Below, piece after piece: positions 43,462-64,000 of a DNA stretch of 64,000 nucleotides; the first letter of the stretch is position 1, and each line of letters starts with the position of its first letter. The notes below the pieces were generated by a model. It did not search any database, was not told the DNA's origin, and was given only the letters and a program-made list of their open reading frames with translations. Made by a program: the position numbers and the translations under genes. Origin of the DNA: Klebsormidium nitens (taxonomy: Eukaryota > Plantae > Klebsormidiophyceae). The stretch covers positions 22,444 to 86,443 of the forward strand of contig DF237346.1 of NCBI GenBank assembly GCA_000708835.1, read 5' to 3'.

Positions 43462-46400
43462 TCAACTACCTGCCAGAGGAAGCTTCAATCGAAGAACCCA
43501 TTGCTTTACGCTCTTGAGGACGGCAGGGACTTCCTCATCTCCTAGAACTTTCTTGCCCTTGGACCAAGATTGCCATCCGTACTCATCAAACCTCTCTGTC
43601 GGGACCACATGCACTAAACGAACCTTCACTCCGCTTGCGCTGGCGCGCTCCACCAGCTGCCGCATCCCTTCTGCGCTACATCGATGCTGGACGTTGCGCG
43701 TGAACTGGACTGCGTTGACCAGCCGTCGCCCGAGCAAACTAGTGAATCCCAAGACTCCTGCGTTTTTACCAACGGCTTCACATACGTGGGCCGTTCCAGC
43801 TTGGCCAAGTCGATTCCTTTGCTCGGTGCGTCATACTTCTTTTCCTTGCTGCCCCCAAACGCTTCCTGGATCTCCTTGATTGCTTGCTCCCTCTGTTCCT
43901 TCTCTGCTTCCTTCTCCGCTTCCGTCTCCATTCGTGGCCGACCCACTGCCCCCTTGGACACCTCCTTGACATCCTCGGGATCTAGCGCTATGCCCTGCTG
44001 ACACATGTCATGCCCGTTCTGCTCTAGAAGATCCCCGGTCAGTTTGCCCAAGGTCGGCTCCTCAGCCGCAGCGCGCAGCATCGTCGTCAGGTCCCGCCAC
44101 CTGCCGAGCTTAGCTTTCTGGTAAACAAGCTCTTTGATTTTTTGTGAACCGAGGGTGTAACCGACCCACTCAAGGTCTTCTGTTGCCTGCACATGACAAG
44201 AGTGCAGAGGTGATTAGGGTGCAAGTCCGTGGTATGTGGTCCATGTGCAGATGAGCGCATGTCCTCAAGTCTGCTGCACACCTCCGCTTTCAATTTGTGA
44301 GAACTTCAAAATAAGCACAAGCCTTATAAGCACAGGACCAACTAGAGAGGAGCCCATTGTGTCACCTGCTTCGTATTGCTCAAACATGCAATCCAAAGAT
44401 GAAAGGTCGGCTATCATTTCAGCCATAACTTTTGACCTGTGCGCCAAGCTGACTCACCTCGATGTGCGCGAAAATGTGTCGCACTTCACTGTCCGAAGAC
44501 TGGGCGCTCAGATTGTACAGCTCCACGGCCTGGTCGGCATCTAGCGTGCGCGCGATGTCGTCAAAAGACGAGGTAGGGTTCGCCAAGACGTGCCTGACGA
44601 GCCCGCCAAACTCCTTCGCGCGCTTCTCCATCTGCTCTTGCGACACCTGCTCGTAGAGGTGCTCCCGGCAGTCCTCCAGCTCCTTCAGCGTCCACACTGG
44701 GAGCCACCACAGGAAGCATCCCCTGCACCACCAATCCAGATTGCCCAGGTCACAAAGGCGAAGTGACCGCAAAAGCAAAAGCTTGGGGTCAGTAAGGGTG
44801 TAAGAGCCACTAGACAACCAGCCTGTTTGTGCCAATGAATGAAGGGGAAATCGCAGGTGTCAAGCCTAGGAGGTAAAAGATGATCCTGAAGGAAATAGGG
44901 GATTGCAAGAAGGCGCCTGAAGGAGGCGGCCTTGGAGCCAGGTTTGACCGATTTCCAGCGAGGTGCTGCGGTATCAATGGCTTGCAGCCAGGGTCCAATG
45001 CGTCCGTAACCTAGCCAAGGTTGCAGAACAACAAGAACAGAGGGACCGTACAACAAGCACGTATTTACAGTTGCGCGTTGCAGGCCCAGGCAAGCACCCA
45101 GGACCTTGGACACATCAAGGATTCGATTCCTCTCAAGCATGAAGAGGTCAATTTGGAGCAACTATTATCGTTGTTCCAACAACTTACCGTCCCTTGACGA
45201 ACTCCCAGTAATTGCCTCTGTTGGGCGAGCACAGTACCACGCAGCGACCGTAACCCCGGAACTGCGTGTGAGGAGGCGCTCGTCCATCTATCACTCGCCA
45301 GACAGTGGGGCGCGCAGAGAGAGCTGCACAACAAGAGGGGCCAATCACTCTGGGGTGGGAATGCGGCAAAACCTGTCACATACTACTTCATCCACAGCCC
45401 AGACCCAGAGTGTGCGCTTTCGCAGGGGCTTACACTGTCACCTGACTTCATCACGAAAGCGCACTTGCATTCAATATCCACCAACATAGGACCTTTGCAA
45501 TCTTTGAAGCTAGAGCCAACTACCATTTGCTGCATAACATGGCTTTCACGGTCGCAACATCATGTGAAACTGTTTGCTCACATTCAAGGGATGGGAAGTC
45601 AGCAGCGCTTTCAGAGGCCCTTTTTACGTTGATGGCGGATGGATCTGAGAAATCGAAGAAGATTATGGTGTCCCGTGTAGCCTCATCCTTGTACCTGCAA
45701 AGGCAGACTGAGAATGTTGGCAGGAAACGAGGAAGCATGAATCCCTTGTCTGGGAAGCCCTTGTTAGAAGCAAGGTGCGAAGCATGATGCTCAGCGACAC
45801 ACGCCACAAGTCAAAAGCAGGCGACTACAGAATTGGCCGGCCAAGATGGTGTACGGTACCTGTATGCCACTTGTGCCCCCTGCTTTGCTAGATGGTGCAA
45901 CAGCAGGACTGCAAACGCTGATTTGCCGATGCCCGGAGTGCCACTCAGGACGACCGCAAAGTCGTTCCCAAGAGCCTCGAGCTTCTTGAGCACCGTGCGA
46001 TAGGATTCCCGGATGAAAATGCTGTCCCTCAGGCCTGGCGGCATTCCCTCCCTGAGCTCGTGCGGAATGTCGATGAATCCACTAGCGATGTCTACTTGCG
46101 CGATGTACTCCGCGTATTTCTGGAGCCGCTCTGGAATAGAAAGCACATCATTATTGTGGTGGGGGCTGACCACTGGCAGATCCAACGCTTTTTTGCTGAT
46201 GCAAGAGATCCTGCATGAGTCAAAAAGTACCTGAAACACCGATCAAGCAGAATACTATGCTGACCGTGCGACCGAACGCTCCAGCACACCACGGCGACAA
46301 GTGGAGCTAGGTACAAAGCCTCACCCAGGACTGCAGGGTCTTGAGCCGCCACCGCTGCACACGGCAGAAGCTCTCTGTCAGCACTCCATACGCAGTCACT

Positions 46401-47392
46401 GGATAAGCCAACTGCAAATGCTTAGCATGAACAGCGGCAATAAGGTTGGAAGTACACTCTCTGCACCGCGAAACCTTTCCGTCTGCATGTGGCCCTGACC
46501 CATGAACCAACACACGAACCTCAGGCAAACCCAGATACAAAAGCCCTTTTGAAGCAGCAGCTCAACTCTCTCTAAACTCTTTCCACTGCGAAGCCTTTCA
46601 ACCTGCAGGTCGCCATGACCCATTGAGCAACGCATGAATTGCAGAAAACGCCAGATGCAAAACCATCCATGGCGTGTGCCCTGGCGCTCTCTTTAAGAAA
46701 CATCAACAAGTAGCAGCAGGGGATTTCCCCTGCACCACAACATTGGCAGCAGAACGCTGCCCATGGTCATTCCCATCTATGCGCTGGTTTGCTGAGCTGC
46801 TCCAAGGAGAGGATCTCTGCACAAGGCCGCTCTCCATGCGTCCGACAACGGGAGACGCACCTGGTGTCCGCTGCAGCTTCAGACTTTCTACCTCCGCCTG
46901 CATGAGCGCGGTCAGCCGCTGCTCCAGCGCGGCCTTCTGCTGCTCCAACGCGACCAATCTTTGCTCCAACGCGACCAATCTTTGCTCCAACAACTCTGTG
47001 CTCTTGCCATCAGCCGCAGCCGCAGCCGCAGCCGCAGCCACAACATCGATCTGGTTCTCCACACGTTCAATTCTCTTCTCCGCACGCTCGATACTCGGCG
47101 TGAGAGCCTGTGCCTTGAGATCTGCCACCTGAGGCTTACGGTTGTCCCCGCTGGGACTCCCAGCGGACTCTGCTCTTCCCCGGGGGGTCTCTGCCCTCGG
47201 CGAGAGGCGCCTCAGTCCTGAACACACCTTGTACTCGGAATGGAACCGGCCCAGCCTCGATCCCTCAAAAAGAGGGCGAGGAAGTGCCCTGAAACCAAAC
47301 CGCTGGGGCATTGCAGGGGTAATGTCTGCCTGCCCGCACGAACATAAAGCCTTCGCCCCGGCCGCCTTGAAGAGCACTGCGGCAGACGCCAT
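43462..47392 (-). CDS. Crinkler (CRN)-like P-loop plus nuclease-like protein with N-terminal coiled coil; 1-nt frameshift near 43715 (possible pseudogene)
   Basis: IFIRESYR..VVLSGTPGIGKSAF (Walker A), VIDGRAP, CSPNRGNYWEF, LPVWTLKELE..FGGLVRHVL, GDLLEQNGH, YVKPL..ESWDSL, then after a shift VQFT..H...VRLVHVVP. This is the typical order in CRN-type families. Exons 46861-47392, 45860-46130, to 45694, ~45190-45300, ~44460-44720 and 43462-44186. Confidence 0.7.
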
Positions 47393-48107
47393 AGAACCTC
47401 ACCAGTGACGTCTCGCGGAGACTATTGAATGCGGTGCTTAAGCCCTTCCAACCTGCCACTCAGCCCTCGCACTCAACTTCGACCACAATGCTGGTTGACA
47501 AAGCTGAGGCCCAGAAGAGCGCTAGATTCAGGGGTACCGAGCGTCGATACGACCGGTTTAGGGGGTGAACCCTGCTCACGGTGGGCGAGCCTTTCTAGGA
47601 CAGAATCAAGCGAAGCTGGAGCAATTGCTTTAAGGACAGGCTTTCCGGGAGGTCTTGTCGATTGTGCCCATGAAGATCACGATTCTCCTCAGTGTCGGCC
47701 ATCCTGCTTCGAGAGTAACCTTTTCACTCTGGCCTTTGCTCATGCGGTGGCACTAAAAGCTTAGTATCCCAAGGAGGAGCGCGCCTGCCCAGCTTCCAAG
47801 CTTTCGGCTCTCAAGTTGCATCAACAGTCAAGTTAACCCCGAACTCGGAAACCTGCTTTCTCGTTCCGGTACGGTTCCCGACTGGTTCCGACCCTGATCG
47901 ACCACCCGCGCGGACACTGGACAGTGACCAAACCGCGTCATGCTCCCTCTTGTCTGCACGTTTTGTCCTTCTGGACCAGTATTGCGAACCGTCCTGTTCC
48001 CTCGGGCCTGCACGTTTGTCAAGCTGAGCAGAGAGATTGCAAACACCATCTTAAAGCTTTCAGGCAGGGCTGCTCCACAGCGACACAGGCAGCCCTGAGC
48101 AGCAAAG

Positions 48108-48114
48108 TATAAAA
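48108..48114 (+). promoter_or_regulatory. Candidate TATA box (TATAAAA)
   Basis: Consensus TATAAAAG upstream of the + strand exon-like segments at 48.2-50.1 kb. Motif match only. Confidence 0.25.
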
Positions 48115-48769
48115 GCCCCTTCCATTGCCATCATTCTTCAATCCATGTCTTCGCAGCGATAAGCTGCCAATTCCTTCTCAACAACCTCTCACTCTCTCGC
48201 ATAATTCCAGCCACTTCAGCTAGCAATCGCTGCCAGACTCAATCCTGCAGCAAAATATCAACAGTGTACGACACCAGCAGTGACGCCCCAGCGGACGTGA
48301 CCAGCTTCTTCAGCCACCCGCCTTGGGAATCTCAGCAACGCGCCCCTGGTCAGACTTTCTGCAACTGATCTTTCTTCCTGTTATGACCGTGCAGAAAGAT
48401 CAGCAGATTACAAGTCCTATTTGTTTGAAGGGGTCAGTCAAAAGTTGCCAATCATACGCATAAAGAAAGAAGAGTCTCTAACTGCGAGCAACTCATTTGC
48501 AATCAGCAGCTATGCAAAGCCATTCTGAGCTCAAGCGCCATGAGTTGACGCATATATTGCTGGTGCTCTTAGCTTTGTGAAACGGAAAGATGAAATTGCT
48601 GGTTTGATCTCAATATTTTCATCGATCGTGAAACTTGCACGGTGTTTTTGATCTGAATGACAGGGTAAGGGCATCGTTTCAGCAGCAGGAGGTTCCCTTT
48701 TGGAAACGTGGAACTTCTGTGCTGAAGGGTTGCTTGTTCAAAACACCCGTAGGCATCAGCATACCTGCC

Positions 48770-50093
48770 ATGGGGTCTGACCTGTGCTTCCCTTGGGAAA
48801 GGTGAGCTTTATCCCCTGCACAAAGGGCAGCTCCTGAAGTTGCAGGGTAGTACAGCTTTCGAGAAGCTTTGTAATGCTGTGACATCTCGCAAAACTGCCT
48901 GCAGGTCATAGCCATGGTCGGTGCCAGGCTGATTCACCACCATTGCACCACCTCTGCAGCACACTCTCCTATGCTAGCTAGCATCTGCTCCATACTCTGT
49001 GGACCCAACCCATTTAGCTCAAATGTTGTAGCGGAACATCTTCAAGTCGACGCGCCTTTTTGCTTATTCCTCCCCCCATTCTGGACTGCCGCAGCCTGCA
49101 AAAACCCTTGTGCTGATAGTCCTTTCTCTTTGCAGCGACCTGTCGGCTTCTGATGCCTCTGAAGGAGAGGATCTTGAAGGCGTTGAGTATGAACCTCGTT
49201 CCATCGATGGGTCTAAGTCAGAAGAATCACGGAGAGCTTCTTCAATGACGATGATTCTGCCAGCGTTCAGGGGCCGAGTTTCTACCGAGCTATCAACAAT
49301 GAAATTGTTGTCAACCCCAGGAACAAGAAGAACCAGGCCCCAGTGAGTCGTTCAAAACGGAAGTGCCTCGTACACTTGCACGCTCAGCAGATTTGTTACC
49401 TTCCTTCAGAAGCATATGCTAGCACAGCCAAGTCCATGAGTGCTTTCATTTTTGTTGCTGTTGACTGTTGCTTGTCTCATTTTGAGGTGTCGATTGATCT
49501 TTGTGAAGCGGGAGGCAAGCTGCCGAGGTTATGATGGTGAGAAAATGCTCGTGTCATTGCTCTTAAGGATATTCACCGGCCTCTCCGTATCGCTGGAACA
49601 AGAACAATGCGTTTAAAAAGGATCCCCTCATAACACTCCCAATCAAAGGCAAGGTAAAGAGAGAAGGGGAGGGGCTGCATGCCTGACTAGTTTTGCCTAG
49701 TGGAAAGGGTAGTGGGTGCGACAGCTAGCAACCAGGCTCGATGGCAACATGAGCCAGAAATGGAAGGTGGAAAGTACGGCGCTGTCGCACGAAGCGGAAT
49801 ATCAAGGTTGATTTCTGCTTTAGAGCAATGGGTTGCAGCAACCTTCCGTCTTGGATATACTTGTGAGTATAATTGATGAAGTTCCATCTTTGTAGGTGCT
49901 GTCCCCTCGCCGCTTACCTGCCGGCCGCTCACCACGGAGAGTAGAGAGAGATGGGAAAATGACTTCTCCTGAGGAGGAAGATGATGGTCCAGTGCTTACT
50001 AGCGGGCAAGCACTTATGACTAAGCTTCGGCGTATCATCCTCTCACAGGAGTCACAGGAGGAGACCGCAGCAACATTGCGGCCACTTCTAGAG
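48770..50093 (+). CDS. Putative acidic/low-complexity 5' exons that could splice onto the primase-helicase
   Basis: 48770-48801 (AG|gtgag, phase 2) joins 49136 (cag|C GAC CTG). 49342 (CCA|gtgag) joins 49896-50093 (phase 0), which is phase-compatible with the acceptor at 51068. Exon 49136-49342 needs one frameshift. Confidence 0.35.
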
Positions 50094-50519
50094 GTGCGGT
50101 CGCTATGTACTTAAATCGTTTTTGATGTGTGCACTAAGATGATTTTGTGTTTTTGAAAGAACTGTCAATCCGGATTGTATAGCTTGGATTGACTCCGCTA
50201 GGAGCTGTTTCTAGTTTAGTGTGTATATATTAATGTGTATCAAGAGTGTTCTATCGATCAGCCGGTGCATGCAAGGCCTTGTACCACACAAACATGTGTA
50301 GCACACGGAGAAAATCTGATGGTATATTTGCAAAGATGCATTGCACAGAGGCAAAATGTGGTGCGGTGTATACATAAAGAGGTGTATCAGTCCGAACTTC
50401 CAAGTGCATGACATCTGTTATAGATTATGCATTTTCTTGGATGCATCAAACACCCCACTGCAGCCAAGACTGCCCCCTCGAGTTATTGCGCAGGTCTAAA
50501 AGTTTAACAAAAAACAATT

Positions 50520-51040
50520 AAAAGGGCCTTTCCTTTCTATATGTAAAATTGGCAACTTTTGACTGGCTCCTCGACCGCCGGAGTTGCACAAAACTTGAGG
50601 TGAATACAAAATGCATTTCTAGCCTAGCGTAGCCAAAACCCCTCTCCTTTTCTATATATATAATCGGTGACTTTTTGGCTGATCCCTCGGGTTGGAGTTG
50701 CGCAAGTCTTGAGTTGAATACTAAAAATGTGTTTCTAGCCTAGCACAGCCAAAACGCCTCTCCTTTTCTATGTATAAAACCGACGACTTTTGGCTGATCC
50801 CTCGACCGCCCGAGAGCAACGTAGACTAGGGAAGGAGCCATAGGAAGAATTCCTAGCCTAGCGTAGCCAAAACGCCTTGCCTTTTCTTCCTAAGATGTAA
50901 AAGCGGCGACTTTCGGTTGATCCCTTGACCGCCGTAGAGTGGCATAGAGTAGAGAAGGAATCATAGGAAGAATCTCTAACCTAGCGCAGCCAAAACGCCT
51001 CTCCTTTCTATATATAAAGCCGGCAACTTTTGGCTGATCC
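50520..51040 (+). repeat. Array of 5 units (~116-123 bp) with a 51-bp quasi-palindromic core CAGCCAAAA-CRCCTCTC..TTCTATATRTAAA..GGCAAC-TTTTGGCTG
   Basis: Cores start at ~50520 (partial), 50630, 50746, 50864 and 50987. Spacers are related to each other. Confidence 0.9.
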
Positions 51041-51068
51041 CTCGTCGCCATTTCCCTCTTGTCTCCAG

Positions 51069-54000
51069 GGGGTGACCTCTGAGGCGGATGAGTGGGGCCA
51101 TATGTGGTGCTCGCGGCTTGCACCGGTAATATCCATCTTCGAAAGCCAGCGGCTACTGGCATCCGACGCCTTTGTTGCTACATGCGACGTTGGCAACAAA
51201 GGGGCAAAGATGTACAGCATCTTTACCAGCGCGGAATCATTCGAGGAGTATATTATAAAAAATCAAGCCAACGACAGCACGCCACACGTCTATGAGGTAC
51301 TGCTTGCTTCGGAGGCCTCTTGGCTATACTTAGACCTCGACTACACGTGTCATGTTCAGAACTCCCAAGATTTCCAACAAAGACGCCAACATCTTCATCG
51401 CCTCCTCGATCACTTTTGTGCTGATGTGATGCAGCTGTCTCTTCAACATCACCAGAGAGTGAATCTGCAAGTTGCGGCCTCACATGGATCTATTGCCCAG
51501 GGGTGCTTTAAGAGCAGCGTTCATGAAGTTTTCAAAGGAATTTACTTCCCTGATCTTGAAACACGTGTAGAATTCAAGAAAGCCTTCGGTCACTTCTTAG
51601 ACCATCCTCCCGCTGAGCTAGCACACAGCGCCGAATTTGTACAATACGTGAAACCTGGCAGCACGATTATACACAAAGTTTGGGATTCGGCTGTCTATTC
51701 TTCGAACCAGGTTTGGCGTACTCTTTGTTCAAGCAAGCACGGAAGTAACCGCGTACTTTTCTCAGAAGAAGGAAGCTCGGATTGCATTCTTGACCATTTC
51801 ATTGGCGTTCGAGGAGATGAGAACTTGATTGCCGCGCATAAAGTTGAAATCGAAGTGCTCCAAGCTTACAATGCAACGGCCGGAAGCGATAGCAAAAAAA
51901 ACATCCGCAAGGATTGCGAGGGTATACAAGAGCGGTCAATCCCCTTGCGGCGGTATTACAATGACAGCTTACAAGACAAACCACTACAGAGGGACCTTAG
52001 TCCGGAAGAACTGGCGCGACTTTTGGAGTGTGCTCAACAAGATCATTTGGGCGCGACACTGGAGCGGCCACGACAGATGTGCTCAGGCACCTTCATTGTC
52101 CATATCCAAGCGCCCTCTGTAAGCCGCACCTGTTGCCTTGCCGGCCGGCCTCACAATAGCCAGGGCAATGGTCAATACCTTGTCTATCGACGGGCAAAAC
52201 CAACTGAGGCGTTGTATAGATGCTTCTCACCCCATTGCCAGTGAGTTTGAGTCTTATTTATAAGAAGTTCGATTCTCGAGCTGAATTCACGCCTTTGCTA
52301 TCACCATCGTTTTTTGCTTTCTAGGAGATAACTAGCTCTTTGAACTATCTTCAAAGAAAACATCCTCTCGTGACCGGCTGAAAATAACGCAAGGCTCTTG
52401 GTGCATGCCTGCCTGCATAAAGTTAAATAAGCAAGAGTCAGCCAAAAAGTTGCTGGCAATGGAATCAGTTTCTGTGGAAATTACAAATTGCCTTTAAGCT
52501 AACTAAGTGTTTGCTTTCTTCTTTTCTACAGAGGCACCGAGCGCCTGCTCTCTCTTGGAAGCACCCTCCGTTGGACCGAGGATTACTCGTCGCCGATGGG
52601 AATGCGGCCATATCCAACACACAGAATCAAACCCGAAACTTTGCGGACCATATTGATTAAAGCAAACAAAGGAATTGGTAAGTCAAAGGCTGGCACTATC
52701 TATCTCAAGGAAATGTTAACCATAAATCCCTCCGCCAGTTGCGTCGTCATTGCCGGCAACGTGGCGCTTGCTGGCAAGCATCTTGAGGAGCTTCATAGCG
52801 TGGGGTTATCGGACTTTGTCCTCTATTCTGAAGTGGAAGGGAGTATTGAAGACAGACGGGTTGTTGTCTGCATCAATTCTGTGCCACGATTGTCCTCTTT
52901 CGATAAAGACATCGTCTACATGGACGAAATCGACATGACTCTTAGCAATCTAAGTTCCGATGTAATGAGGGATCGGCGAATGGTATTTTTGGGGCTGCAC
53001 GAGATCGTCGAGACAGCGCGTATTGTGGTGGGCTTGGACGCAAACGTCGATAGTGCACGCGTTGTTGAATGGCTCGAAGCTGTTCGTCCTGCCGCCTCCA
53101 TCTACGCCATCAAAAATACGGGGGTTCGCCGGTCAGAGCGAACAGCTACCATCTTGCCGCTACCCCCTGCAACGAAGTTGAAAGACCGGTTTGCCCCAAT
53201 TGTGAATCGGATCCTGGCAAACGTCGAGGCAGGAGAAAACATCTGGGTAAGTTTTTCAAAGTGTTGGAAAACCTGTTAAATGCTCGAATCGCTGGTCGAA
53301 TTGCAAATACTTGTTGTTGCACTCATGCTGTAGCAAATGTCAATTGTTGACATGGTAAGATGTTTCTCTTAAAAGCATGCACTCTCAAACTGTCTTTCAA
53401 CGTTTAAATGCAAATTGAGTACTTAAAGAGTGCTTCTCATTGCAGGTTGCCTCAACAAGCAGAACCTTTATTGAGCAACTCGAAGAAGGTTTCAATGCAG
53501 CGTTCGTCAATGGAGATAAAACGATTCTTACATTCCACGGAGGAAAAACATCGGCAGAAGACAAAGAGTTGCTTCAACGAGCGGTAGCCGAACCAAATGG
53601 CTGCATGGTTGCCCACTGTCTCGGTTACTCTCCAACTATTGGGCCTGGCGTATCGATGGAGGCTAAACACTACCATCGTGGGGTAGGGATTGGATTGAAT
53701 CGCCTAGAGCATGGCCCAGATGTTTTCACTTTCACACAAATGTTACAAAGAGTGCGCGATGGAGGCAATATTGAGATATACTATATGGAAAGCGGCGCCC
53801 CCAAGTTTGCACCTTCAACCAAAGAAGACGTCTTTAGAGCGATTGAACGGGAGGACGCCCAACTGCACTCTCTGATCAATCCAACTGAAGTCCTCGACTT
53901 TCTGAAATTACGTGGCAAGCGTCCTATTTGTGATCGAGCTTCTCCCACCTGTATTGTCTACGCTAACAATGTTTTGGCAAGGTACCAGAGCGTGACAAAC

Positions 54001-55957
54001 TACGTGAGCATATTGATGAAAGATCTTGAAGAGCAAGGGCTTACAGTGGTTGACAAACTGGAGGAAACGCAGCAGGAGGTCGAGGTACAGGAAGGTCCAG
54101 CCGAGAAATCCGGATCAGACCCTGATGCAGATCTTTCCGATGATGAGTGGCGCAAGCGGTTTTGTATCTCGCAAGAGGAAAATAAAGAAATAGTGAAGAA
54201 AAGAAAGAACCATGAGGGCGTGAGTAAGCTACAGGAGAAACAACAGAAAATCTACTTTTATGCAAATGAAGTCTACAAAGTGGATTACAAGAAAATCAAC
54301 CACTCATTCCTTGTGGACTACTGCAACGATTCCACACTGATTGAGTATACAAATTATCGAAGGTGAGTCTTTCTCTCCCTAACGTCACTGCCACGGCCAC
54401 ATTTTTGTGGCTGCTAAAAGAAACAGCCAAAAGTCGCCAGTTGTACATATAGAAAAAGAGAGGTGTTTTGGCTGCCAGGGTCAAGAGTCTCTCTATCTGT
54501 TGTTTCGCGATCGGCGTTTCTGCTGCTGCTCGATGACACAGCCAAAAGTTGCCAATTTTACATATAGAAAAAGAGAGGTGTTTTGACTGCCAAATTCAGG
54601 AGTCTCTCTATCTGTTGTCTTGCGTCCAAAGTCTCTGCTGCTGCTCGAGGGAACAGCCAAAAGTTGCCAGCTTTACATATAGAAAAAGAGAGGTGTTTTG
54701 GCTGCCAAATTCAGGAGTCTCTCTATCTGTTGTTCCGCGTCCAAAGTCTCTGCTGCTGCTCGAGGGAACAGCCAAAAGTTGCCAGCTTTACATATAGAAA
54801 AAGAGAGGTGTTTTGGCTGCTAGGGTCAAGAGTCTCTCTTTCTGTTGTTCCACGTCCAAAGTCTCTGCTGCTGCTCGAGGGAACAGCCAAAAGTTGCCAG
54901 CTTTACATATAGAAAAAGAGAGGTGTTTTGGCTGCTAGGGTCAAGAGTTTCTCTATCTGTTGTTCCGCAATCAGAGTTTCTGCTGCTGCTGCTCGAGGAA
55001 ACAGCCAAAAGTTGCCAGCTTTACATATAGAAAAAGAGAGGTGTTTTGGCTGCCAAGTCAGCAAGCCTTTTTTTTGGTCTGCCCGCTACTCTACGACGAT
55101 CGAGGAGTCAGCCTAACTTTCAACTGTATCCTCAATGATCAAAGAGCATCCATTAACCCCCCCATGTTTCTATATGTAAACCTGGGAACTTTTCGCTGGC
55201 AAGGCCGGAACAATAGATGGACCCCCAAACTTAGCAGCCAAAAGTTGCCAGCTTTGCATATGATAGAAAAGTAGAGGTGTTCTGGTTGAAGTCTCTCTAT
55301 TGCTCTAGCCATTGCTCTATCACGCGGCTCGATGAGACTGACAAAAGTTGCCAACTTTACGCATGGAGAAGGGAAAGTGGTTTGACTTCTGTTTGATTAA
55401 AAAGGACGTTTTGCCGGCAGTACTAAAAAAGTGCCTTTTTTCTTTACAGGTTTCAGCGCTTTCCATACGAAATGCTTCGATCAGAATGGGAATTGACGCT
55501 TAGCAATGCCAACAATCTTCTTCCAACAAAGGATTACCTGGAGACTCGCGACAAACCCAAATACCGTATCATATTCGCGTACTCTCTACTCGCTGAAATG
55601 CTTGAAGTCTCTCCCGAGGATGTTGACCACTTGCAAATCGGCGTTTCTTACGAGATCTCTGAGAGAAACCTTCAAGCTGCCTATGAAAAACTGGTGAAGC
55701 CACAGCTAGCCTTCGTAAAGCAATGGTACGACATCAAGCAAAAAGTCCCTAAGGACAAGAACTCTGGTGAAGCAGTTATGTCGGACGCTCTGAAGCGCAA
55801 CGTTGTCAAAAAGGTTTTGCAACTTGGTCTAGGGCTGAGGTTTGAAGAGATAGCAAATAAGAAGAGCAATCACAAGTTTGTGAAGGCACACAGATTTAGC
55901 CCAGATTTATGGAAAGACATGCACGTTCGATTTGGAGGAGCAGAAGCTGAAATCTAA
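51069..55957 (+). CDS. AEP (PrimPol/herpes-NCLDV-like) primase - Zn finger - UL9-like origin-binding SF2 helicase fusion, ~1100 aa, 4 core exons
   Basis: Exons 51069-52240, 52532-53246, 53446-54362 and 55450-55957 are all phase-compatible GT-AG. AEP motifs: YEVL..WLYLDLD, SSVH, DSAVYSSNQVWR..SSKHG. Zn finger: CCLAGRPH..CFSPHC. Helicase: ILIKANKGIGKS, YMDEID, LDAN, YSPTIGPGVS, QMLQRVR. Confidence 0.82.
54424..55370 (-). repeat. Intronic array of the same 51-bp core in inverted orientation, 115-bp period
   Basis: CAGCCAAAAGTTGCCAGCTTTACATATAGAAAAAGAGAGGTGTTTTGGCTG starts at 54424, 54539, 54654, 54769, 54884 and 55002. Degenerate copies lie at ~55235 and ~55340, and a flipped partial at ~55155-55195. 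All lie within intron 54363-55449. Confidence 0.93.
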
Positions 55958-56091
55958 AATTGCATGCAGGTTGCAGTCAATCAATTTGTTTGCTTTCATT
56001 CTTATTCGCATTGAACCAATGAGTCCTTACTGCAGCATGTTTTGCCGAAGCATAAGGAACTGCAAGAGTGATGCATGCACTTCAGATGTTT

Positions 56092-56470
56092 TCATGAGAT
56101 ATTCCTCGTCTGAACTCTCTGACGATGATCATCACCTCTTGTTTCGACCTTGATTTTTTTGGTATTTTTCTTAGACGCAACACTTTTCTTTGCACCATGC
56201 TTCTTACGAGCACCGCTGTCTTTTGCGGACCGTTGAGTAGACTCGTGTCTTTGCACCTCGGGCTGTCGAAGTTGTTTCGAAAACCGAAAAATCTAGTTTT
56301 GTCGCATACGATGAAAAAGTCCCCTCGAATGGTAGATTTTTTGGTCGATCACATTTTGTTATCGGAACGATATGAACTCGATACGCAGACTGTTTCCGCT
56401 GAGATCCTCGAGTTGTTTCTTGGAGCATCACCGATACGCAAGTTGGCAACTTAACTTGTTTGCCTTGATC
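56092..56470 (-). pseudogene. MC1-like DNA-binding protein, copy 1 (5' truncated by the repeat array, frameshifted)
   Basis: GKQVKLPTCVSVMLQETTRGSQRKQSAYRV..., a direct repeat of ~60140-60520 with a frameshift before the basic tail. Confidence 0.7.
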
Positions 56471-56479
56471 TAAAAGCGA

Positions 56480-59400
56480 TTCGGCATTATTCACGATCAG
56501 AAAGTGTTGGGCATTATCTACGATCCAAAAGTGTTGAGCATTATCTACGATCCAAAAGTGTTGGGCATTATTGACGATCAGATAGTGATTGAGCGTCATC
56601 GACGATCCGATGGTGTTTGGGCATTATCTACGATCCAAAAGTGATTGAGCCGCTTATCGACGATCCGAAAGTATTTGGGCATTATCTACGATCCGATGGA
56701 GATTGATCATCTCTACGATCCAAAATTGATGGAGCATTATCTTCGATCCGATGGCGGTTGATCATTTTAATTCTACGATCAAAAAGTGAATGGGCATTAT
56801 CTACGATCCAAAGGCGTTAGGTATTATCTACCATCCGATCCGATTCTGATTGTCCGCTCTCAAACTTCGGCCGTGAATTTTCTGTTCCCCGTGGTCGACT
56901 TTTGACGACTCTGGGTCACTAAATTTGAATTGTCGGAGTTTAGAGCCGGAATTTTCGGCGCGTCGACTCACTAGGAGGTCACTGGCTACTACCCAGCCTT
57001 CAAAAACTACATTTTTTGATCAAATTTGAAACTTCGATCGACTTTCGACCGTCGTCAACCGTAGATGTGGACCGGCAGTCGTCAAAATCAGCCACATGGC
57101 TGCCACCGTGGAAGTTCGTGAGCGGAGGAACTCTAGACTAGGTCCCGAGCTCGGGACCAAACTCGGATGCAAGTTGTCTCGGGCCCCTTAAACGCGGGGC
57201 CAACATGCTGTTTTCGACGGAGCGTTCGATGCATCGAAATACGGGCGAGAGTACGACATATCGTCGAAACCCGGAAACATCGCACCTAATAAGTTTGCAG
57301 ACTGGCGCTGCAACATCTTGTCCCTGCATTTAATGGGCCCGAGTGTGGGCGTTTGTACGATCCCATGATGAATGTTCATTTGGTACGATCAAAGTTGAAT
57401 GGGCGCTTGTACGATCCAATGTTTTGGCATTATCTACGATTCAACAGTGATTGAGCATTATCAACGATCCGAAAGTGTTTGAACATTATCTACGATCCAA
57501 AAGTGTTAGTCATTAATGACGATCCGAAAGTGATTGAGCATCATCGACGATCCAAAAGTGTTTGAGCATTATTGACGATCCAAAAGTGTTTGAGCATTAT
57601 TGACGATCCAAAAGAATTTGAGCATTATCTACGACCCCAAAAGTGTTGGGCTTTATTGACGATCCGAAAGTGATTGAGCATCATCGACGATCCGATGGTG
57701 TTTCGGCATTATCTACGATCCAAAAGTCATTAAGCATTATCGACGATCCAAAAGTATCTAAGCAATGATTATCTACGATCCAATATTGATCATGGACTTG
57801 CATGATCTACGATCCGATGGCGGTTGATCATTATCTACGATCCGAAAGCGTTAGGGCATTATCTACCATCCGATCCGATTCTCCGCTCTCAAATTTTCGG
57901 CCGTGGATTTCTGTTCCCCGTGGTCGACTTTTGACGACTCTGAGTCACTAAAATTGATTTGTCGGAATTCAGCGCCGGAATTTTCGGCGCGTCGACTCAC
58001 TAGTAGGTCACTGGCTACTAGCTAGGCTACTACCCAGCCTAGCTAGCCTAGCTAGTAGCCAGTACTCGGTCGAGCCCGGCTCCAGAAAAGTTGATTTCGA
58101 CCAAATTTGGAACTTCAATCGACTGTCGACTGCCTTCGACCGTAGATATGGACTGGCGGACGTCAAACTCAGCCACATGGCTGCCACCGTGGAAGCGAAG
58201 GAACTCCAGCCTGGCTAGGTTCCGAGCTCGGGACCAAACTGTGGGCGTTTGTATGATCCCATGATGAATGTTCATCTAGTACGATCAAAGTTGAATGAGT
58301 GTTTGAACTTTGTACGATCCAATGTTTTGGCATAATCTACGATCCAAAAGCGTTAGGCATTATCTACGATCCAATGGTGTACGGGCATTATCTACGATCC
58401 AAAAGTGTTGCGCATTATTGACGATCCGAAAGTGATTGAGCATCATCGACGATCCCAAAGTGTTCGAGCGTCATCTACGATGCGGTGGCGATTGCTCAAT
58501 TTCTACGATCCAACAGTGATGGAGCACTATCTTCGTACGATCACACGATCTAAAAGTGATTTGGCATTATCTACGATCCGATGGCGGTTGATCATCATTT
58601 TCTACGATCCGGACGTGATTGAGCATTATCTACCATCCGATCCGATTCTCCGCTCTCAAACTTCGGCCGTCAATTTTCTGTTCCCCGTGGTCGACTTTTG
58701 ACGACTCTGGGTCACTAGATTTGAATTGTCGGAGTTTAGCGCCGGAATTATCGGCGCGTCGACTCACTAGTAGGTCACTGGCTACTAGCTAGACTACTAC
58801 CCAGCCTAGCTAGCCTAGCTACTGTAGTAGCCAGTGACTCGGACAAAAACTTGATTTCGACCAATTTTGTAACTTCAATCGACTTTTTCGACTGCCGTCA
58901 ACCGTAGATATGTGGACTGGCGGACGTCGAACTCAGCCACATGGCTGCCACCGTGGAAGTTTGAGCGGAGGAACTTCAGGCTAGGCCCCGGATCTCAGAT
59001 GCCTCATGTGGGCGTTTGTACGATCCGCTGATGAATGTTTATTTGGTACGATGAAAGTTGAATGGACCTTTCTACGATCCCGCGATGATGAATGTTCATT
59101 TGAAACGATCAAAGTTGAATAGGCGTTTGTACGATCCAAAGGTGACTGTTTGATTGATACGATACAAAATTGATTGGCGAGAATGTACGATCTGATGGTG
59201 ATCGGTCATCATATACGATCCAGAGTGGTTGGGCAATTGTACGATTAGATGGGCATTGTTCATTTGGTACAATTGTTTGGGCATTCGTACCACCCAAGGG
59301 TGATTGTTCTTCATGTACGATCCGCCGATGATGATGAATGTTCATTTGGTACGATCAAAGTTGAATGGGCGTTTGTACGATCAAAAAGTGATTGTTTGAT

Positions 59401-59600
59401 TGATACGATACAAAATTGATCGGCGATAATGTACGATCTAATGGTAGTTGGTCATCATATGCGATCCAGAGTGGTTGGGCAATTGTACGATTAGATGGTC
59501 ATTGCTCATTTGATACAATCGGTCGGGCATTCGCACCACCCAAATGGTGCTTGTTCTTCATGTACGATCCGATGATGAATGTTGATTTTCTACGATCCCA
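56480..59600. repeat. Higher-order array of ~27-28 bp units with core (T/G)ACGATCC, interrupted by three copies of a ~450-570 bp conserved block
   Basis: The unit is GGCATTATCTACGATCCAAAAGTGTT(G/T), with roughly 60-70 cores by eye. The conserved block (CCATCCGATCCGATTCT...CAGCCACATGGCTGCCACCGTGGAAG...) starts at 56831, 57866 and 58633. There is also a ~246-bp tandem duplication at ~59100-59590. Confidence 0.93.
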
Positions 59601-59834
59601 CAAATCTCTTTTTGCATCTTGCAATGCTTATGACACAGGTTTCAGTTATAAATTTAAAGGGGTTTGAAGATTTGGGTCTTGTTACCACTTATGCACTTTC
59701 CACAACCAAAGCACCAAGTTCTAAGCACCTTTTACGCAAGGCATAAGAATGGTTGCGTGTTTTTGCGTGAGTGAGTCTTCGAGAGCATGTTAAACGTGGT
59801 TGTGGACTATTCAGAGTTGTCAGAAAGCTTAGAC

Positions 59835-60130
59835 GATGAGCTGAGCTTTCTGACGATGAATCATCGTCTCTTGTTTAGACCTTGGTTCTTTTCACAAGTT
59901 TCTTCAGCACTTTTCTTTGCACTATGGTTCTTACAAGCACAGTTGTCTTTTGCGGACCGTTGAGTAGAACCCGTCTTTGCAGCTTGGGCTGTCGAAGTTA
60001 TTTCGGAAACCGAAAGATCTAACTTAGTTGCATAAGATGAAAAGGTCCCCTTCAACGATCGATTTTTTGGTTGATCACATTTCTTGACTGGAACGATACA
60101 AACTCGATACAAAAACTATTCCCATTGAGT
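59835..60130 (-). pseudogene. MC1-like DNA-binding protein, copy 2 (3' part only, frameshifted)
   Basis: YRVCIVPVKKCDQPKNRSLKGTFSSYATKLDLSV..., a tandem partial duplicate of copy 3. Confidence 0.7.
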
Positions 60131-60152
60131 TCATATTGAACGTGATTGTGAA

Positions 60153-60695
60153 CTATTCATCGTCTGAGCTTTCCAACGATGAATCATCTTCTCTTGTTTG
60201 GACCTTGGTTTTTTTGGCTGGTTTCTTAGACGCAGCGTTTTTCTTTGCACCGCGCTTCTTACGAGCACTACTGTCTTTTACAAACCGTTGGGTAGAAATT
60301 GTATTTTCAGCTCGGGCTTTCGAAGTTGTTTCAAAAACCGAAAGATCTAGCTTAGTTGCATAAGATGAAAAAGTCCCCTTGAACGATAAATCCCGTGGTT
60401 GATCGGATTTCTTCACTGGAACGATACGAACTCGATAAGCAAATTGCTTTCGCTGAGATCCACGCGTCGTTTCTTGAATCATCACCGATACACAGGTTGG
60501 CAGCTTGACTTGCTTGCCTTGGCATTTCTGCGTCCGGTAGAGTTGTGATCCAGCTCGAGCTCCAGCTTGACTCACGCGTCCCTTGACCGCATCAATTTCG
60601 AGACGCATATCTTAATCAAGGGCGAGCGCATCTTGGTTCTTACTATCTCTAGCTGCAACCACCTTGAAGCTTCTTTTTTGACCAGCGGCATCCAT
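60153..60695 (-). CDS. MC1-like (NCLDV-type chromosomal protein) basic DNA-binding protein, copy 3; one in-frame TAA at 60612-60614
   Basis: MDAAGQKRSFKVV...(stop)...GRVSQAGARAGSQLYR...VMIQETTRGSQRKQFAYRVRIVPVKK plus a K/R-rich and acidic tail. KRSF.V, AA.KA.SQL.R and I.ETTRGS.KK.F.Y match the viral MC1 domain as I recall it. Confidence 0.65.
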
Positions 60696-61041
60696 TGTCG
60701 ATGTAACCTTTAATGAGATAGCTTGAGAAAATAATAGTACCCCTAAGGCATTTATTGTATATGTGAGTGCATTTCATAGCTCAAGATTCAAAAATGGTTC
60801 TGAAAGAGGAATCCGCAAGCATGCTTTTTGAAAAAGTGACAAGCGAAATTTGGATAACTACTTATTGTTTTGAGAAATCTCGAGATTTCTCAACATTTTC
60901 CTTACCCCGCTTGCAGTTTATAGAAGGTAACTACAAAATGTATTCTTCTGGTCAATTTATTTTGACATGCTAGATTTTGATAACTCAATCGTCTAACCGA
61001 CATGTTACAAAATTATTTTCGGGAGGGTAAGATAACTATAG

Positions 61042-61873
61042 ATGGATGTCACGCTTCAACAAGTTTTGACTGACGGGATTCGAAGCCTAAGTGTCAGTCA
61101 AGCAGTATCTGAAGGGAATCAAGTTCCTTTGGGACCTCTGTTTTGAACCTGAGGAAATGCCTAGTAATCCAACATGGATTAAGGCAAAAGCCAAGATAAT
61201 TATTGAATCAGTTCTTGAACGATACAATAACCCTGGAAGCAGACGAACCCGTTTAGCCCCGTTCTTGGCCGTTTGTAGAAAGATGGGTTTTTCGGAGGCG
61301 TATAAGATATACTATGAACCGTTTAAAAGTCAGAAAGGTGCTCTTAAGGAGCTACGAGAACAACAGCTCGAGAAAGAGAAAATCGAAAACGGCACCGTCT
61401 ATATGAATACTGGAGAGGTTGAAACATTTGGGAAGAAACTAGCTCGAAAGGTTCGTAGTATGACATTTGTTGGGGATTCGATGCAGAAGCTCAGTACGAA
61501 GGAGATCAAAATAATCATGGTGCACTTGTTACTTGAATGGTCTATGCTTGTTGATCAAGATCACCAATCACGGGTGAAGCTATATGATCTTCCAATTGTC
61601 AGAAAAGGGGGGAAAATACGTTTAAGTGGATGTTATCTTTTGGAGACATCTCGGCGAAAAGGTTCATACAAATTGGTCTTTGAAGATGGCAATGAAATAG
61701 GATCGAGCAAAATGCTTAGCAGATACATACATCGCACACTTGAAATTCTACCACGGGAGTATCTGCTGACATCCATTTCACAGCCTGAAGTACCAATGTC
61801 AGCTTCTAACTTTGCGATCTTTTGTAGCAAAATCGAATGTGAGGGGAAGCGCTTTAATCCAAAACAGGTGTAG
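61042..61873 (+). CDS. Degenerate tyrosine-recombinase paralog lacking the C-terminal catalytic motifs; 1-nt frameshift near 61090 relative to the ATG at 61042
   Basis: Collinear similarity to the downstream YR: SVKQYLK ~ TVIAYMR; LAPFLAV ~ AAPFAIL; HLLLEWSML ~ HLLLSLYTM; LPREYLL ~ IPRKYVI; SNFAIF ~ KNFTIV. It ends at KRFNPKQV* before the LRH, MGH and Y motifs. Confidence 0.55.
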
Positions 61874-61933
61874 GTTATGCGTGTACATAAGTTCGAATTA
61901 TAATTATTATCTTGTTGAAAGATAAGTACATAT

Positions 61934-62992
61934 ATGATGGACCCTAAGCTTGCGGCCGAGGTACAATCTATCCTCAAGAATCAAAGCGATGATAAGATTG
62001 CTCGCGGAGCTCCTGCGCATCGTAGTGACTCGACGGTAATTGCATACATGCGCCAGCTATCACATGTGTACAAAGAAGGGGTATTCGGCCCCGAGATAAT
62101 GGAGGATCTCGAATGGATAAAAGCCTCCGACGCAGTGATTGCGGTCATCGAAGGTTTGACAACACGTAACGGTGAGTTACTAAAAGCACTTACAAAGAGC
62201 AACTACGCCGCTCCGTTTGCCATTTTAACTCAACATTTAGGTGCTTCAAGTGCTCAAGGTAAGTACACAAGTTACATTCAGAAGATGAAGCCATCAGAAG
62301 AGGAATTGGATCGTACGATACAGAGGAAAACACCTAAGGAGGTTGCAAATTGGGTACCTTGGGACGAGCTTGTCAAGCGGCGAGGCGAGCTCGATCAACA
62401 GATTGTCGCAAACATAGTGCCAAAATTCCAGGAGAAGAGAAGACTTACATTTTTCGATAAGCAATTAATGATGGACCACCTGCTACTCAGCCTTTACACA
62501 ATGACTCCAGGCCCGTTGAGAAACGAATATGCGGAATGCGTCTTTTTCTTTAAAGAAGATGGTGACCACGAACTTACTTTAAATCCCGGAGATGTGAACA
62601 CGTGCGAGCTGAATGATGATTTCGACCGTTGTTTCTTCCATCTGGGAAGACACAAAACTCTTGAAAAAGATGGTGTCAGAAAACTTGCCATACCGGAGAC
62701 GCTCGTGAATGTGCTTCTCAGAAGTTTCAATCTTATCCCACGCAAATACGTGATCCTAAAAAGACACTATCTTGCCTGGAAAGACAAGCCACATAAGAAC
62801 TTCACTATTGTCCTCAACGACCTTGGTCAACGCCAATTTAACAAGAACTTGTCATGTACACTTTTACGACACATTTCACATACGGAAGAGTCTTCAAAGT
62901 TGCACTCAAGAGGCGAATTGCGAGCAAAGGCGAGGTATATGGGTCACAGTCTTCGAACGGCTGATGAGCTCTATGATAGACGATATGCTTGA
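61934..62992 (+). CDS. Tyrosine recombinase/integrase (PLV/NCLDV-type), 352 aa
   Basis: Catalytic constellation: GPLRNEY (R), GRHKT (K), TLLRH (R), YMGHS (H) and DELY (Y). Intact single-exon ORF. Confidence 0.85.
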   Translation: MMDPKLAAEVQSILKNQSDDKIARGAPAHRSDSTVIAYMRQLSHVYKEGVFGPEIMEDLEWIKASDAVIAVIEGLTTRNGELLKALTKSNYAAPFAILTQHLGASSAQGKYTSYIQKMKPSEEELDRTIQRKTPKEVANWVPWDELVKRRGELDQQIVANIVPKFQEKRRLTFFDKQLMMDHLLLSLYTMTPGPLRNEYAECVFFFKEDGDHELTLNPGDVNTCELNDDFDRCFFHLGRHKTLEKDGVRKLAIPETLVNVLLRSFNLIPRKYVILKRHYLAWKDKPHKNFTIVLNDLGQRQFNKNLSCTLLRHISHTEESSKLHSRGELRAKARYMGHSLRTADELYDRRYA

Positions 62993-63001
62993 AAAGCCAA
63001 G

Positions 63002-64000
63002 CTACCGTTGCAAGCATGGGCATACGTACGTGCTTTTTGGCATATTTCCCTTGGGGAATCGAACCGGATCGGGCATTGGAGGGTCTCCTACATAGTGTTC
63101 ACAGTCTGGTTTCATACGTACTCCCGAAAGTCCTTTGAACTGGCCTCTGAGCTGAATAGAATGATCAACGTATTTTCCATCTTGTATTTGAAAATTGAAG
63201 CCATCAGCATACAGTATTATCTTCTTTTTCAAAGCCGTAGGAGTGAGAGAGCTGCTTAAACCCTCCTTTTGCGTCCAACTTTTGAAAGCATCACCAAGAC
63301 TTTGCCCAAGTCCAAGATAGTAAGTTGATTGATCTTCGGGAGTCTTAAACTCCAAGCAATCTTCAATAAAGCGCTTGCCAAGATCCGAGTCGCTGATGTA
63401 ACCTTTCAGTGCATCTTCCATTGCTTTTGGGCGCTTTTCCAAAACACGCTTGTTTGGATTAGCCCTCTTCAGGTCAAAGTAACGTTTTGCTCCTGCAGCA
63501 ATCCAAGACAAGCCCTCTTCTTTGCCTTTTTCAGATTTAAGGTATGTGTCAAGCGTGGGATCCATGAGCTTTTCACGAGGTTTATTGGGGTTTGGATTGC
63601 TCTTAAAGGTCACAATCATGGGGAGAAGCGCCATTCGTCGGGTTAGACTAAAAGACGCGTTTTCCATGATCGGCTTATAATTGGTATTCAACACTGCTTT
63701 GTGGGTGATCAGAAAGGTTTCTGGTGGAGTATGGAGTTGTCGAGCTGTGATATGACCACCTCCCGAAAGCTCTTTGATTGTTCCCTCATTTAAGATGGCT
63801 CTTTCAGAACTTTCATCGCTTTCTGCAAGCCTAGCTCCTTTTAAGGTTATTAAATGACTCGAAGGTGACCCCGCAGATCGTTTTCCGCCAGCTTCTATGA
63901 TAACGTCCCTATCCATTACAACCGCATAACTGCCAAATATCTCAAAAGATGCAATCTTGGTGAGTGATTTGCCGTTGGATCCATCCCCTTGCTTGATGAG
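63002..64000 (-). CDS. D5-like/P4-family primase-associated SF3 helicase, C-terminal part (5' end beyond the window)
   Basis: The frame stays open to the window edge: LIKQGDGSNGKS (Walker A), LKGARLAESDES (Walker B), LNEGTIKELSGGGHITARQLH, NTNYKP (sensor N), RRMALLPMIVTF. Confidence 0.88.
   Translation of the reverse strand, partial: LIKQGDGSNGKSLTKIASFEIFGSYAVVMDRDVIIEAGGKRSAGSPSSHLITLKGARLAESDESSERAILNEGTIKELSGGGHITARQLHTPPETFLITHKAVLNTNYKPIMENASFSLTRRMALLPMIVTFKSNPNPNKPREKLMDPTLDTYLKSEKGKEEGLSWIAAGAKRYFDLKRANPNKRVLEKRPKAMEDALKGYISDSDLGKRFIEDCLEFKTPEDQSTYYLGLGQSLGDAFKSWTQKEGLSSSLTPTALKKKIILYADGFNFQIQDGKYVDHSIQLRGQFKGLSGVRMKPDCEHYVGDPPMPDPVRFPKGNMPKSTYVCPCLQR

Follow-up and report, generated by a model that had tools for sequence, protein, structure and literature searches.

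A spliced AEP-UL9 gene beside a partly broken MC1-recombinase-Prim-Pol/D5 block in Klebsormidium nitens

Does the right-hand end of a stretch of Klebsormidium nitens DNA hold one self-replicating mobile element, or several viral relics lying next to each other? The stretch, here called the window, comprises 64,000 nucleotides of contig DF237346.1 (assembly GCA_000708835.1, positions 22,444 to 86,443), and window positions are used throughout. Its region of interest, 49.9-64 kb, contains an AEP-Zn finger-UL9 gene, a gene resembling MC1, and two tyrosine recombinase (YR) genes, of which one is intact and the other broken. It finishes with the 3' third of a gene for a D5-type helicase, within which the right edge of the window falls at 64000. 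The original prediction joined all of these into one coherent new element. Gene content, splicing and breaks can be read directly, and every one of the genes belongs to a viral kind already known. The reading ranked first, with about an even chance of being correct, is that two viral-type relics adjoin each other: an AEP-UL9 gene that is spliced and intact, and a partly broken MC1-YR-YR-PrimPol/D5 block. That block probably represents the left portion of a small integrated DNA virus or of an element derived from a virus. Below this two-part reading come one larger endogenous virus and then a capsid-less element.

Structure and relatives of the AEP-UL9 gene

AEP-UL9 is a single spliced gene on the plus strand, in which four open reading frame (ORF) pieces join into an open frame of 1,169 codons spread over five exons; counted from the ATG at 49959, the protein has 1,148 aa. 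The first coding exon (49896-50093) is joined in frame to an exon (51069-52240) that encodes a C962R-like AEP primase and a Zn finger. Two further exons (52532-53246 and 53446-54362) encode the UL9-like SF2 helicase, and the last exon (55450-55957), placed by its frame join, matches the paralog P0026. All four introns (50094-51068, 52241-52531, 53247-53445 and 54363-55449) follow the GT..AG rule. The helicase matches Pfam Herpes_ori_bp (PF02399, E 3e-17), the AEP exon carries DxD, H and D motifs together with a C-H-C-C Zn finger, and the primase, Zn-finger and SF2 motifs are all intact. Relatives of the AEP exon match AEP_C962R.

Spliced contigs come from four sequencing runs that were retrieved using 50500-56000 and assigned as RNA-type by guess, none being on record as RNA. 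Three of the four contain the intron 1 joint and three the intron 2 joint (52240/52532); the intron 4 joint (54360/55448) appears in one, and for intron 3 one run shows a loose end of 12 bases at 53445. No AEP-UL9 splice joint is listed in the contigs of the DNA runs, one of which covers 47352-54473 without differences and may be the window's own source. The transcription unit begins further upstream on the plus strand (47917-49342), where GT..AG joints, mostly present in all four RNA-type runs, connect exons at about 47917-48348, 48664 or 48753-48801, and 49136-49342. These upstream exons contain stop codons in every frame as far as 49214. Their resemblance to the acidic N-terminal extension of paralogs is faint (41% over 27 aa to P0100), and paralog extensions compared with 47.4-50.1 kb gave no significant match (best E 0.027). 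The predicted replicase gene is therefore real by its Pfam match and motifs, but its left border is not 50520, because the ATG lies at 49959 and the transcript starts at about 47.9 kb. One RNA-type contig has a poly(A) loose end at 51383 within the AEP exon, a prematurely ended transcript. Contigs of the DNA runs that have multiple skips over 51348-53118 also reveal a second, fragmentary copy of AEP-UL9 at another place. Most of 56.2-64 kb lacks an RNA-type contig, which is no evidence of silence since the runs were found through 50500-56000.

The AEP exon belongs to a sizeable family. A search of 1.84 billion proteins, which returns representatives of 50% clusters, yielded 31 matching clusters, with members listed for 20 of them. 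A tree of 37 rows, from which P0039 was excluded beforehand and 9 of 45 rows were dropped as too short, places 30 in one Klebsormidium-type group, which takes in the window's own row together with five named rows from K. nitens and divides into about seven well-supported subclades. Six named AEP paralogs are known from K. nitens; UL9 follows the AEP in three of the models and D5 follows it in one, although models may be merged. The one with D5 is P0100, where either helicase swapping or a merged gene model may have put a D5 helicase in the place of UL9. Many metagenome relatives stop at the same residue as the window's AEP exon, which suggests that they have the intron at this boundary in common. 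A G-x-V-[E/D]-x-[N/H]-P-G motif occurs in the N-terminal extensions of P0020 (aa 120), P0029 (aa 332) and P0100 (aa 86), and we take it to resemble a 2A/StopGo peptide. A phage search returned no match for P0026. The named relatives of the AEP-UL9, MC1, YR and D5 genes are all K. nitens proteins.

The MC1-YR-YR-PrimPol/D5 block

The MC1-like DNA-compaction gene (60153-60695, minus strand) has an in-frame stop at 60614 that separates the conserved N-terminus from the remainder. Two partial copies lie on the same strand: a 3' half at 56100-56467, 81% identical to the full copy, and a second 3' partial at 59841-60132, so that the MC1 gene first proposed becomes one full and two partial copies. 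The gene has 6 relatives, and its identity derives from the predicted model of the intact relative P0083 (pLDDT 68.7). Compared with BFVD, this model resembles MC1 proteins of giant viruses (E 5e-6 to 9e-3), with 7 matches at E <= 0.001, several of them named MC1, and so lends model-based support to the MC1 call. Pfam, Atlas (best 0.81), VIA-align (best Z 4.3) and a sequence search of the PDB all gave no MC1 match.

Next to it stand two recombinase genes on the plus strand. YR1 (61934-62992) encodes an intact tyrosine recombinase of 352 aa with the R-K-(L)RH-H-Y signature, and its predicted model, weak at pLDDT 57.5, resembles YRs of giant viruses and virophages (E 3e-5 to 1e-2). Against the PDB it has neither a sequence match nor a significant Foldseek match, with a top Z of 5.1 to topoisomerase IB/YR folds; its 14 relatives, at 52-71% identity, come from JGI and Logan only. 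YR2 (61091-61873) has no in-frame ATG and stops at 61871, ahead of the C-terminal catalytic motifs. Its N-terminus aligns with the YR1 profile (hhalign 83%, E 9e-6), and it resembles Preplasmiviricota clusters of the Atlas at 0.90. The tandem recombinases of the original prediction thus reduce to one intact enzyme, recognised by its signature residues, and a broken paralog. Loose ends at 62797-62839 in DNA runs reflect other YR copies.

The last gene (63002-64000, minus strand) is the C-terminal third of a Prim-Pol/D5_N/SF3 primase-helicase, cut by the window end. The predicted D5 helicase is borne out by matches to PHROG primase-helicases (E 1.5e-31) and by the presence of Walker A/B, motif C and the R finger. 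Six longer relatives (795-971 aa) have Prim-Pol and D5_N domains, and their Prim-Pol is PF09250, unlike the C962R-type AEP. A phage search with P0091 gave primase-helicase matches at 22-28% only. The YR1, D5 and MC1 frames are uninterrupted by introns, whereas AEP-UL9 has four.

Decay beside intact genes, as first proposed, is evident in the stop at 60614 and in the missing ATG and early stop of YR2. One sequencing run (X5) covers 51.3-64 kb closely and at high identity, and because its mismatches to the window consist almost wholly of C>T at 268 places and G>A at 365, it reads as bisulfite data in which unconverted cytosines would indirectly indicate dense methylation of 51.3-64 kb. In K. nitens, silent transposons are marked by CHG and CHH methylation (PMC5890265). 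On the favoured reading, the right-hand block is a decaying and probably methylated viral integration-replication module.

Family membership suggests how such a module would work. The YR would insert a circular DNA into the chromosome and cut it out again, priming, copying and unwinding of that DNA would fall to the Prim-Pol/SF3 protein, and MC1 would compact it. Together, these roles point to a packaged genome, whose capsid genes would lie past 64 kb or have been lost. AEP-UL9, for its part, would derive from a replicase of giant-virus or mriyavirus type, have gained introns, spread in the lineage and then landed beside the MC1-YR-D5 block.

One element or two neighbouring parts

Whether the two parts belong together was judged by a proxy for linkage, namely identical base-pair sizes of the longest contig listed for each relative, with one contig per protein. 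By this measure, relatives of MC1 and YR fall on contigs of equal size in three of six cases (91093, 54068 and 31246 bp), those of D5 and YR in five of six (91093, 54068, 10087, 8654 and 4666 bp), and those of MC1 and D5 in two of six; the contigs of 91,093 and 54,068 bp match all three genes. Moreover, the K. nitens D5 gene model P0092 starts with a YR fragment. The sizes of the 35 AEP-relative contigs match none of the 38 YR, 6 MC1 or 6 D5 sizes, a weak negative because a single longest contig was available per protein and members were listed for 20 of the 31 clusters. By this measure, MC1, YR and D5 relatives recur together on other contigs, where AEP relatives were not seen; one fused protein does link AEP to D5.

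Several observations weigh against a division into two parts. The fused protein, the metagenome protein P0015 from a contig of 5,035 bp, joins a D5 end (63565-63083) to an AEP end (51747-52241) at 87% identity each. It implies that the D5/AEP neighbourhood predates this one copy, as the two are neighbours in a diverged copy too. The genes converge in the window, so the fusion requires an inversion; recombination between the inverted repeat arrays A1 and A2 of the AEP-UL9 introns followed by deletion would give such a protein, as would a chimeric assembly. GC content, about 50-55% before 50 kb, drops to 41-49% throughout 50-64 kb and hence in both parts, and the presumed methylated stretch likewise covers AEP-UL9 and the right-hand block. 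Furthermore, the 30-row AEP clade has a support of only 90/77, MC1 is a giant-virus gene rather than one of Polinton-like viruses (PLVs), and no capsid gene occurs among the scanned ORFs. The contig-size comparison is itself indirect, resting on one contig per protein, on cluster representatives and on partial member lists.

The strongest alternative, possible yet clearly less probable, makes the whole stretch the edge of one larger endogenous virus, either a giant-virus insert or a small Nucleocytoviricota/PLV-like virus with two replicases. Its capsid genes would then sit beyond 64 kb, and introns would have entered the outermost gene after integration. The MC1 and YR models do match giant-virus proteins best, P0015 fuses D5 to AEP, and relatives lie on contigs of 54 and 91 kb. 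AEP-UL9 shares the architecture of mimivirus R8, pF1055L of African swine fever virus (ASFV) and a yaravirus protein (10.1101/2024.02.29.582850), and K. flaccidum has several Phycodnaviridae-like inserts (PMC5294986). Yet the AEP relatives have no contig-size match, the D5 relatives possess the PF09250 Prim-Pol instead of a C962R-type AEP, the broken YR resembles Preplasmiviricota clusters, and AEP-UL9 is transcribed from exons that reach 47.9 kb.

It is unlikely that the region is a single integrative element that lacks a capsid and replicates itself, with AEP-UL9 and PrimPol-D5 as its replicases, a YR, MC1 and an array-based origin. This reading is close to what was first proposed. All of these functions do lie inside 14 kb, P0015 shows D5 adjoining AEP in another copy, and the repeat array between the parts, array B, contains hairpins. 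The absence of a capsid gene among the scanned ORFs fits such an element, but the window ends within D5, so the scan says little about capsids. Moreover, the arrays A1 and A2 are intronic, neither element ends nor a target site or empty site was found, AEP-UL9 is linked to the module in only one other record, and MC1 is known mainly for packing DNA in virions (PMC11464507). A coherent new element with an iteron origin is not demonstrated, given the intronic A arrays, the introns of AEP-UL9 beside uninterrupted YR1, D5 and MC1 frames, and the weakly negative contig comparison.

Least probable of all, and very unlikely, is that the host has domesticated AEP-UL9 as a helper in repair or replication and that the viral block was inserted beside it by chance. 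In its favour, the frame is intact, the motifs are conserved, the gene has four introns and transcripts in several runs, and AEP subclades have close relatives in other samples. Against it, the upstream exons are broken, a poly(A) end falls within the AEP exon, the DNA runs contain a second copy in fragments, the gene body is apparently methylated along with the block, and several models of the numerous paralogs are partial.

Known systems, repeat arrays and surroundings

The two-part reading draws on genes with well-described counterparts. Endogenous PLVs commonly pair a YR with a primase-helicase (PMC10120064; 10.64898/2026.06.19.733378), and in polisuviruses YRs pair with AEP/PolA replicases (10.64898/2026.10.13.758929). 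The window resembles both in its YR beside a primase-SF3 helicase and in its integrated, decaying state; small repeat arrays and a repeat-bracketed second AEP replicase also occur in some endogenous elements, and AEP genes are proposed to move independently (10.64898/2026.10.13.758929). It differs in its MC1-like gene, which the available parts of 10.64898/2026.06.19.733378 and 10.64898/2026.10.13.758929 do not mention, and in the spliceosomal introns of its second replicase. The polisuvirus trait of a YR or rve integrase is represented by the intact YR with its catalytic signature, and that of a primase/polymerase-helicase replicase by the SF3 helicase, whose relatives have Prim-Pol and D5_N. 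Polisuviruses also form units of 15-40 kb bounded by terminal repeats, and here the right end falls outside the window. Among the scanned window ORFs, which stop where the window cuts the D5 gene, there was no match to a capsid gene (double jelly-roll major or minor), MCP, A32-like ATPase, polB, VLTF3 or HUH endonuclease. Pattern scans of IMG/VR found no relatives, and blanks in such scans do not show absence. Streptophyte PLV capsids are listed in PMC10120064.

Giant viruses offer the second set of counterparts. Klebsormidium giant-virus inserts are published (PMC5294986; PMC11244446), and the Phycodnaviridae-like inserts of K. flaccidum/nitens share with the window the host lineage and multiple rearranged giant-virus-type insertions, to which the MC1 and YR folds also correspond. 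They differ from the window in that its D5 relatives have a Prim-Pol N-terminus and its scanned ORFs lack polB, MCP, A32 and VLTF3. MC1 is a giant-virus packing protein that is also present in virophage particles (PMC11464507). Both MC1 and AEP-UL9 are Nucleocytoviricota accessory genes, typical rather than defining, and the AEP fused to a UL9-like SF2 helicase found here is a trait of Mriyaviricetes in a subset of Yaraviridae. In mimivirus R8, ASFV pF1055L and yaravirus SF2_hel the same fusion occurs with intact motifs (10.1101/2024.02.29.582850), whereas the Klebsormidium version is nuclear, intron-bearing and multi-copy in its host, and its paralogs have long acidic N-terminal extensions. 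The ties first noted to giant viruses, through MC1 and AEP-UL9, and to PLVs, through YR and SF3 helicase, thus hold.

A Crypton has a YR as its sole enzyme gene. The YR relatives here co-occur with PrimPol-D5 and MC1, which agrees with the initial exclusion of that class. Tlr1 is grouped with capsid-less replication-integration modules. Transpovirons and other such modules likewise combine a replicase and an integrase with no visible capsid, but have pPolB/DDE or an SF1 helicase (10.64898/2026.10.13.758929), in contrast to the Prim-Pol/SF3, YR and MC1 of a window cut before a capsid could show. YR with primase-SF3, AEP-UL9 fusions and Klebsormidium inserts are known, but no paper was found on this gene set, on MC1 in a YR-PrimPol/D5-type module or on an intron-bearing AEP-helicase family, with the reservation that preprint supplements and Fig. 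S5 of PMC5294986 may cover them.

The large repeat arrays of the original prediction are present, with TRF scores of 325-979 for 115-123 bp units and at most 387 for 27-28 bp units. Array A1 (50520-51044, 115-123 bp units) lies within intron 1 and array A2 (54410-55375, 5.5 copies of 115 bp units plus outliers) within intron 4; they have a 60 bp core in common and are mutually inverted. Nothing here shows the iteron origin that had been assigned to these entirely intronic arrays, although an intronic location may leave a role at the DNA level, and the inverted orientation means that the AEP-UL9 exons could flip. A 42-base look-alike of the core occurs at 48429-48470, in an upstream intron of the AEP-UL9 transcription unit. 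Array B (56467-59600) sits between partial MC1 copies; in it, a unit of about 450 bp that is present three times alternates with blocks of 27-28 bp repeats. One unit copy holds a hairpin at 58010-58063 with perfect 20-bp arms (z -3.7, as stable in 0 of 200 shuffles); of the other copies, one has a degenerate form and one a deletion. By sequence, array B is a better candidate than A1/A2 for an origin or recombination site.

There is a low but real chance that Klebsormidium hosts a class of capsid-less nuclear self-copying elements, built from an AEP primase and a swappable helicase (UL9 or D5), spliced in host-like fashion, with a 2A-like peptide at the front of some copies. One of them would here have joined a YR-PrimPol-MC1 integrative module, with the inverted intronic arrays and hairpins as flipping, replication or recombination sites. 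Streptophyte algae are sister lineages of land plants, and we know of no DNA virus of this size class with a well-described life in them. Were MC1 fixed beside YR and PrimPol-D5, a PLV-type module would be connected with the genome packing of giant viruses. The proposal of self-moving AEP replicases (10.64898/2026.10.13.758929) could also be put to the test on the intron-bearing AEP-helicase family.

Around these features, DNA depth is 18-22 on long contigs either side of 50.5 kb, a value that is not a copy number and is uninformative on episomes, and the longest DNA contig extends 31 bases beyond 64000. No Rfam match occurs within 47-64 kb. In the same DNA runs, 57295-57343 is shared with 5-6 other contigs and a site near 60899 with 3, as dispersed repeats. 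The left 47 kb of the window carries intron-rich eukaryotic genes, among them carbamoyl-phosphate synthase-like, methyltransferase, ankyrin and DNA-repair metallo-beta-lactamase genes. At 43600-47400, on the minus strand, lies a spliced multi-copy gene whose product combines a P-loop NTPase (weak nSTAND3 match) with a coiled coil, presumably CRN/RHS-like, with many divergent copies among the DNA runs.

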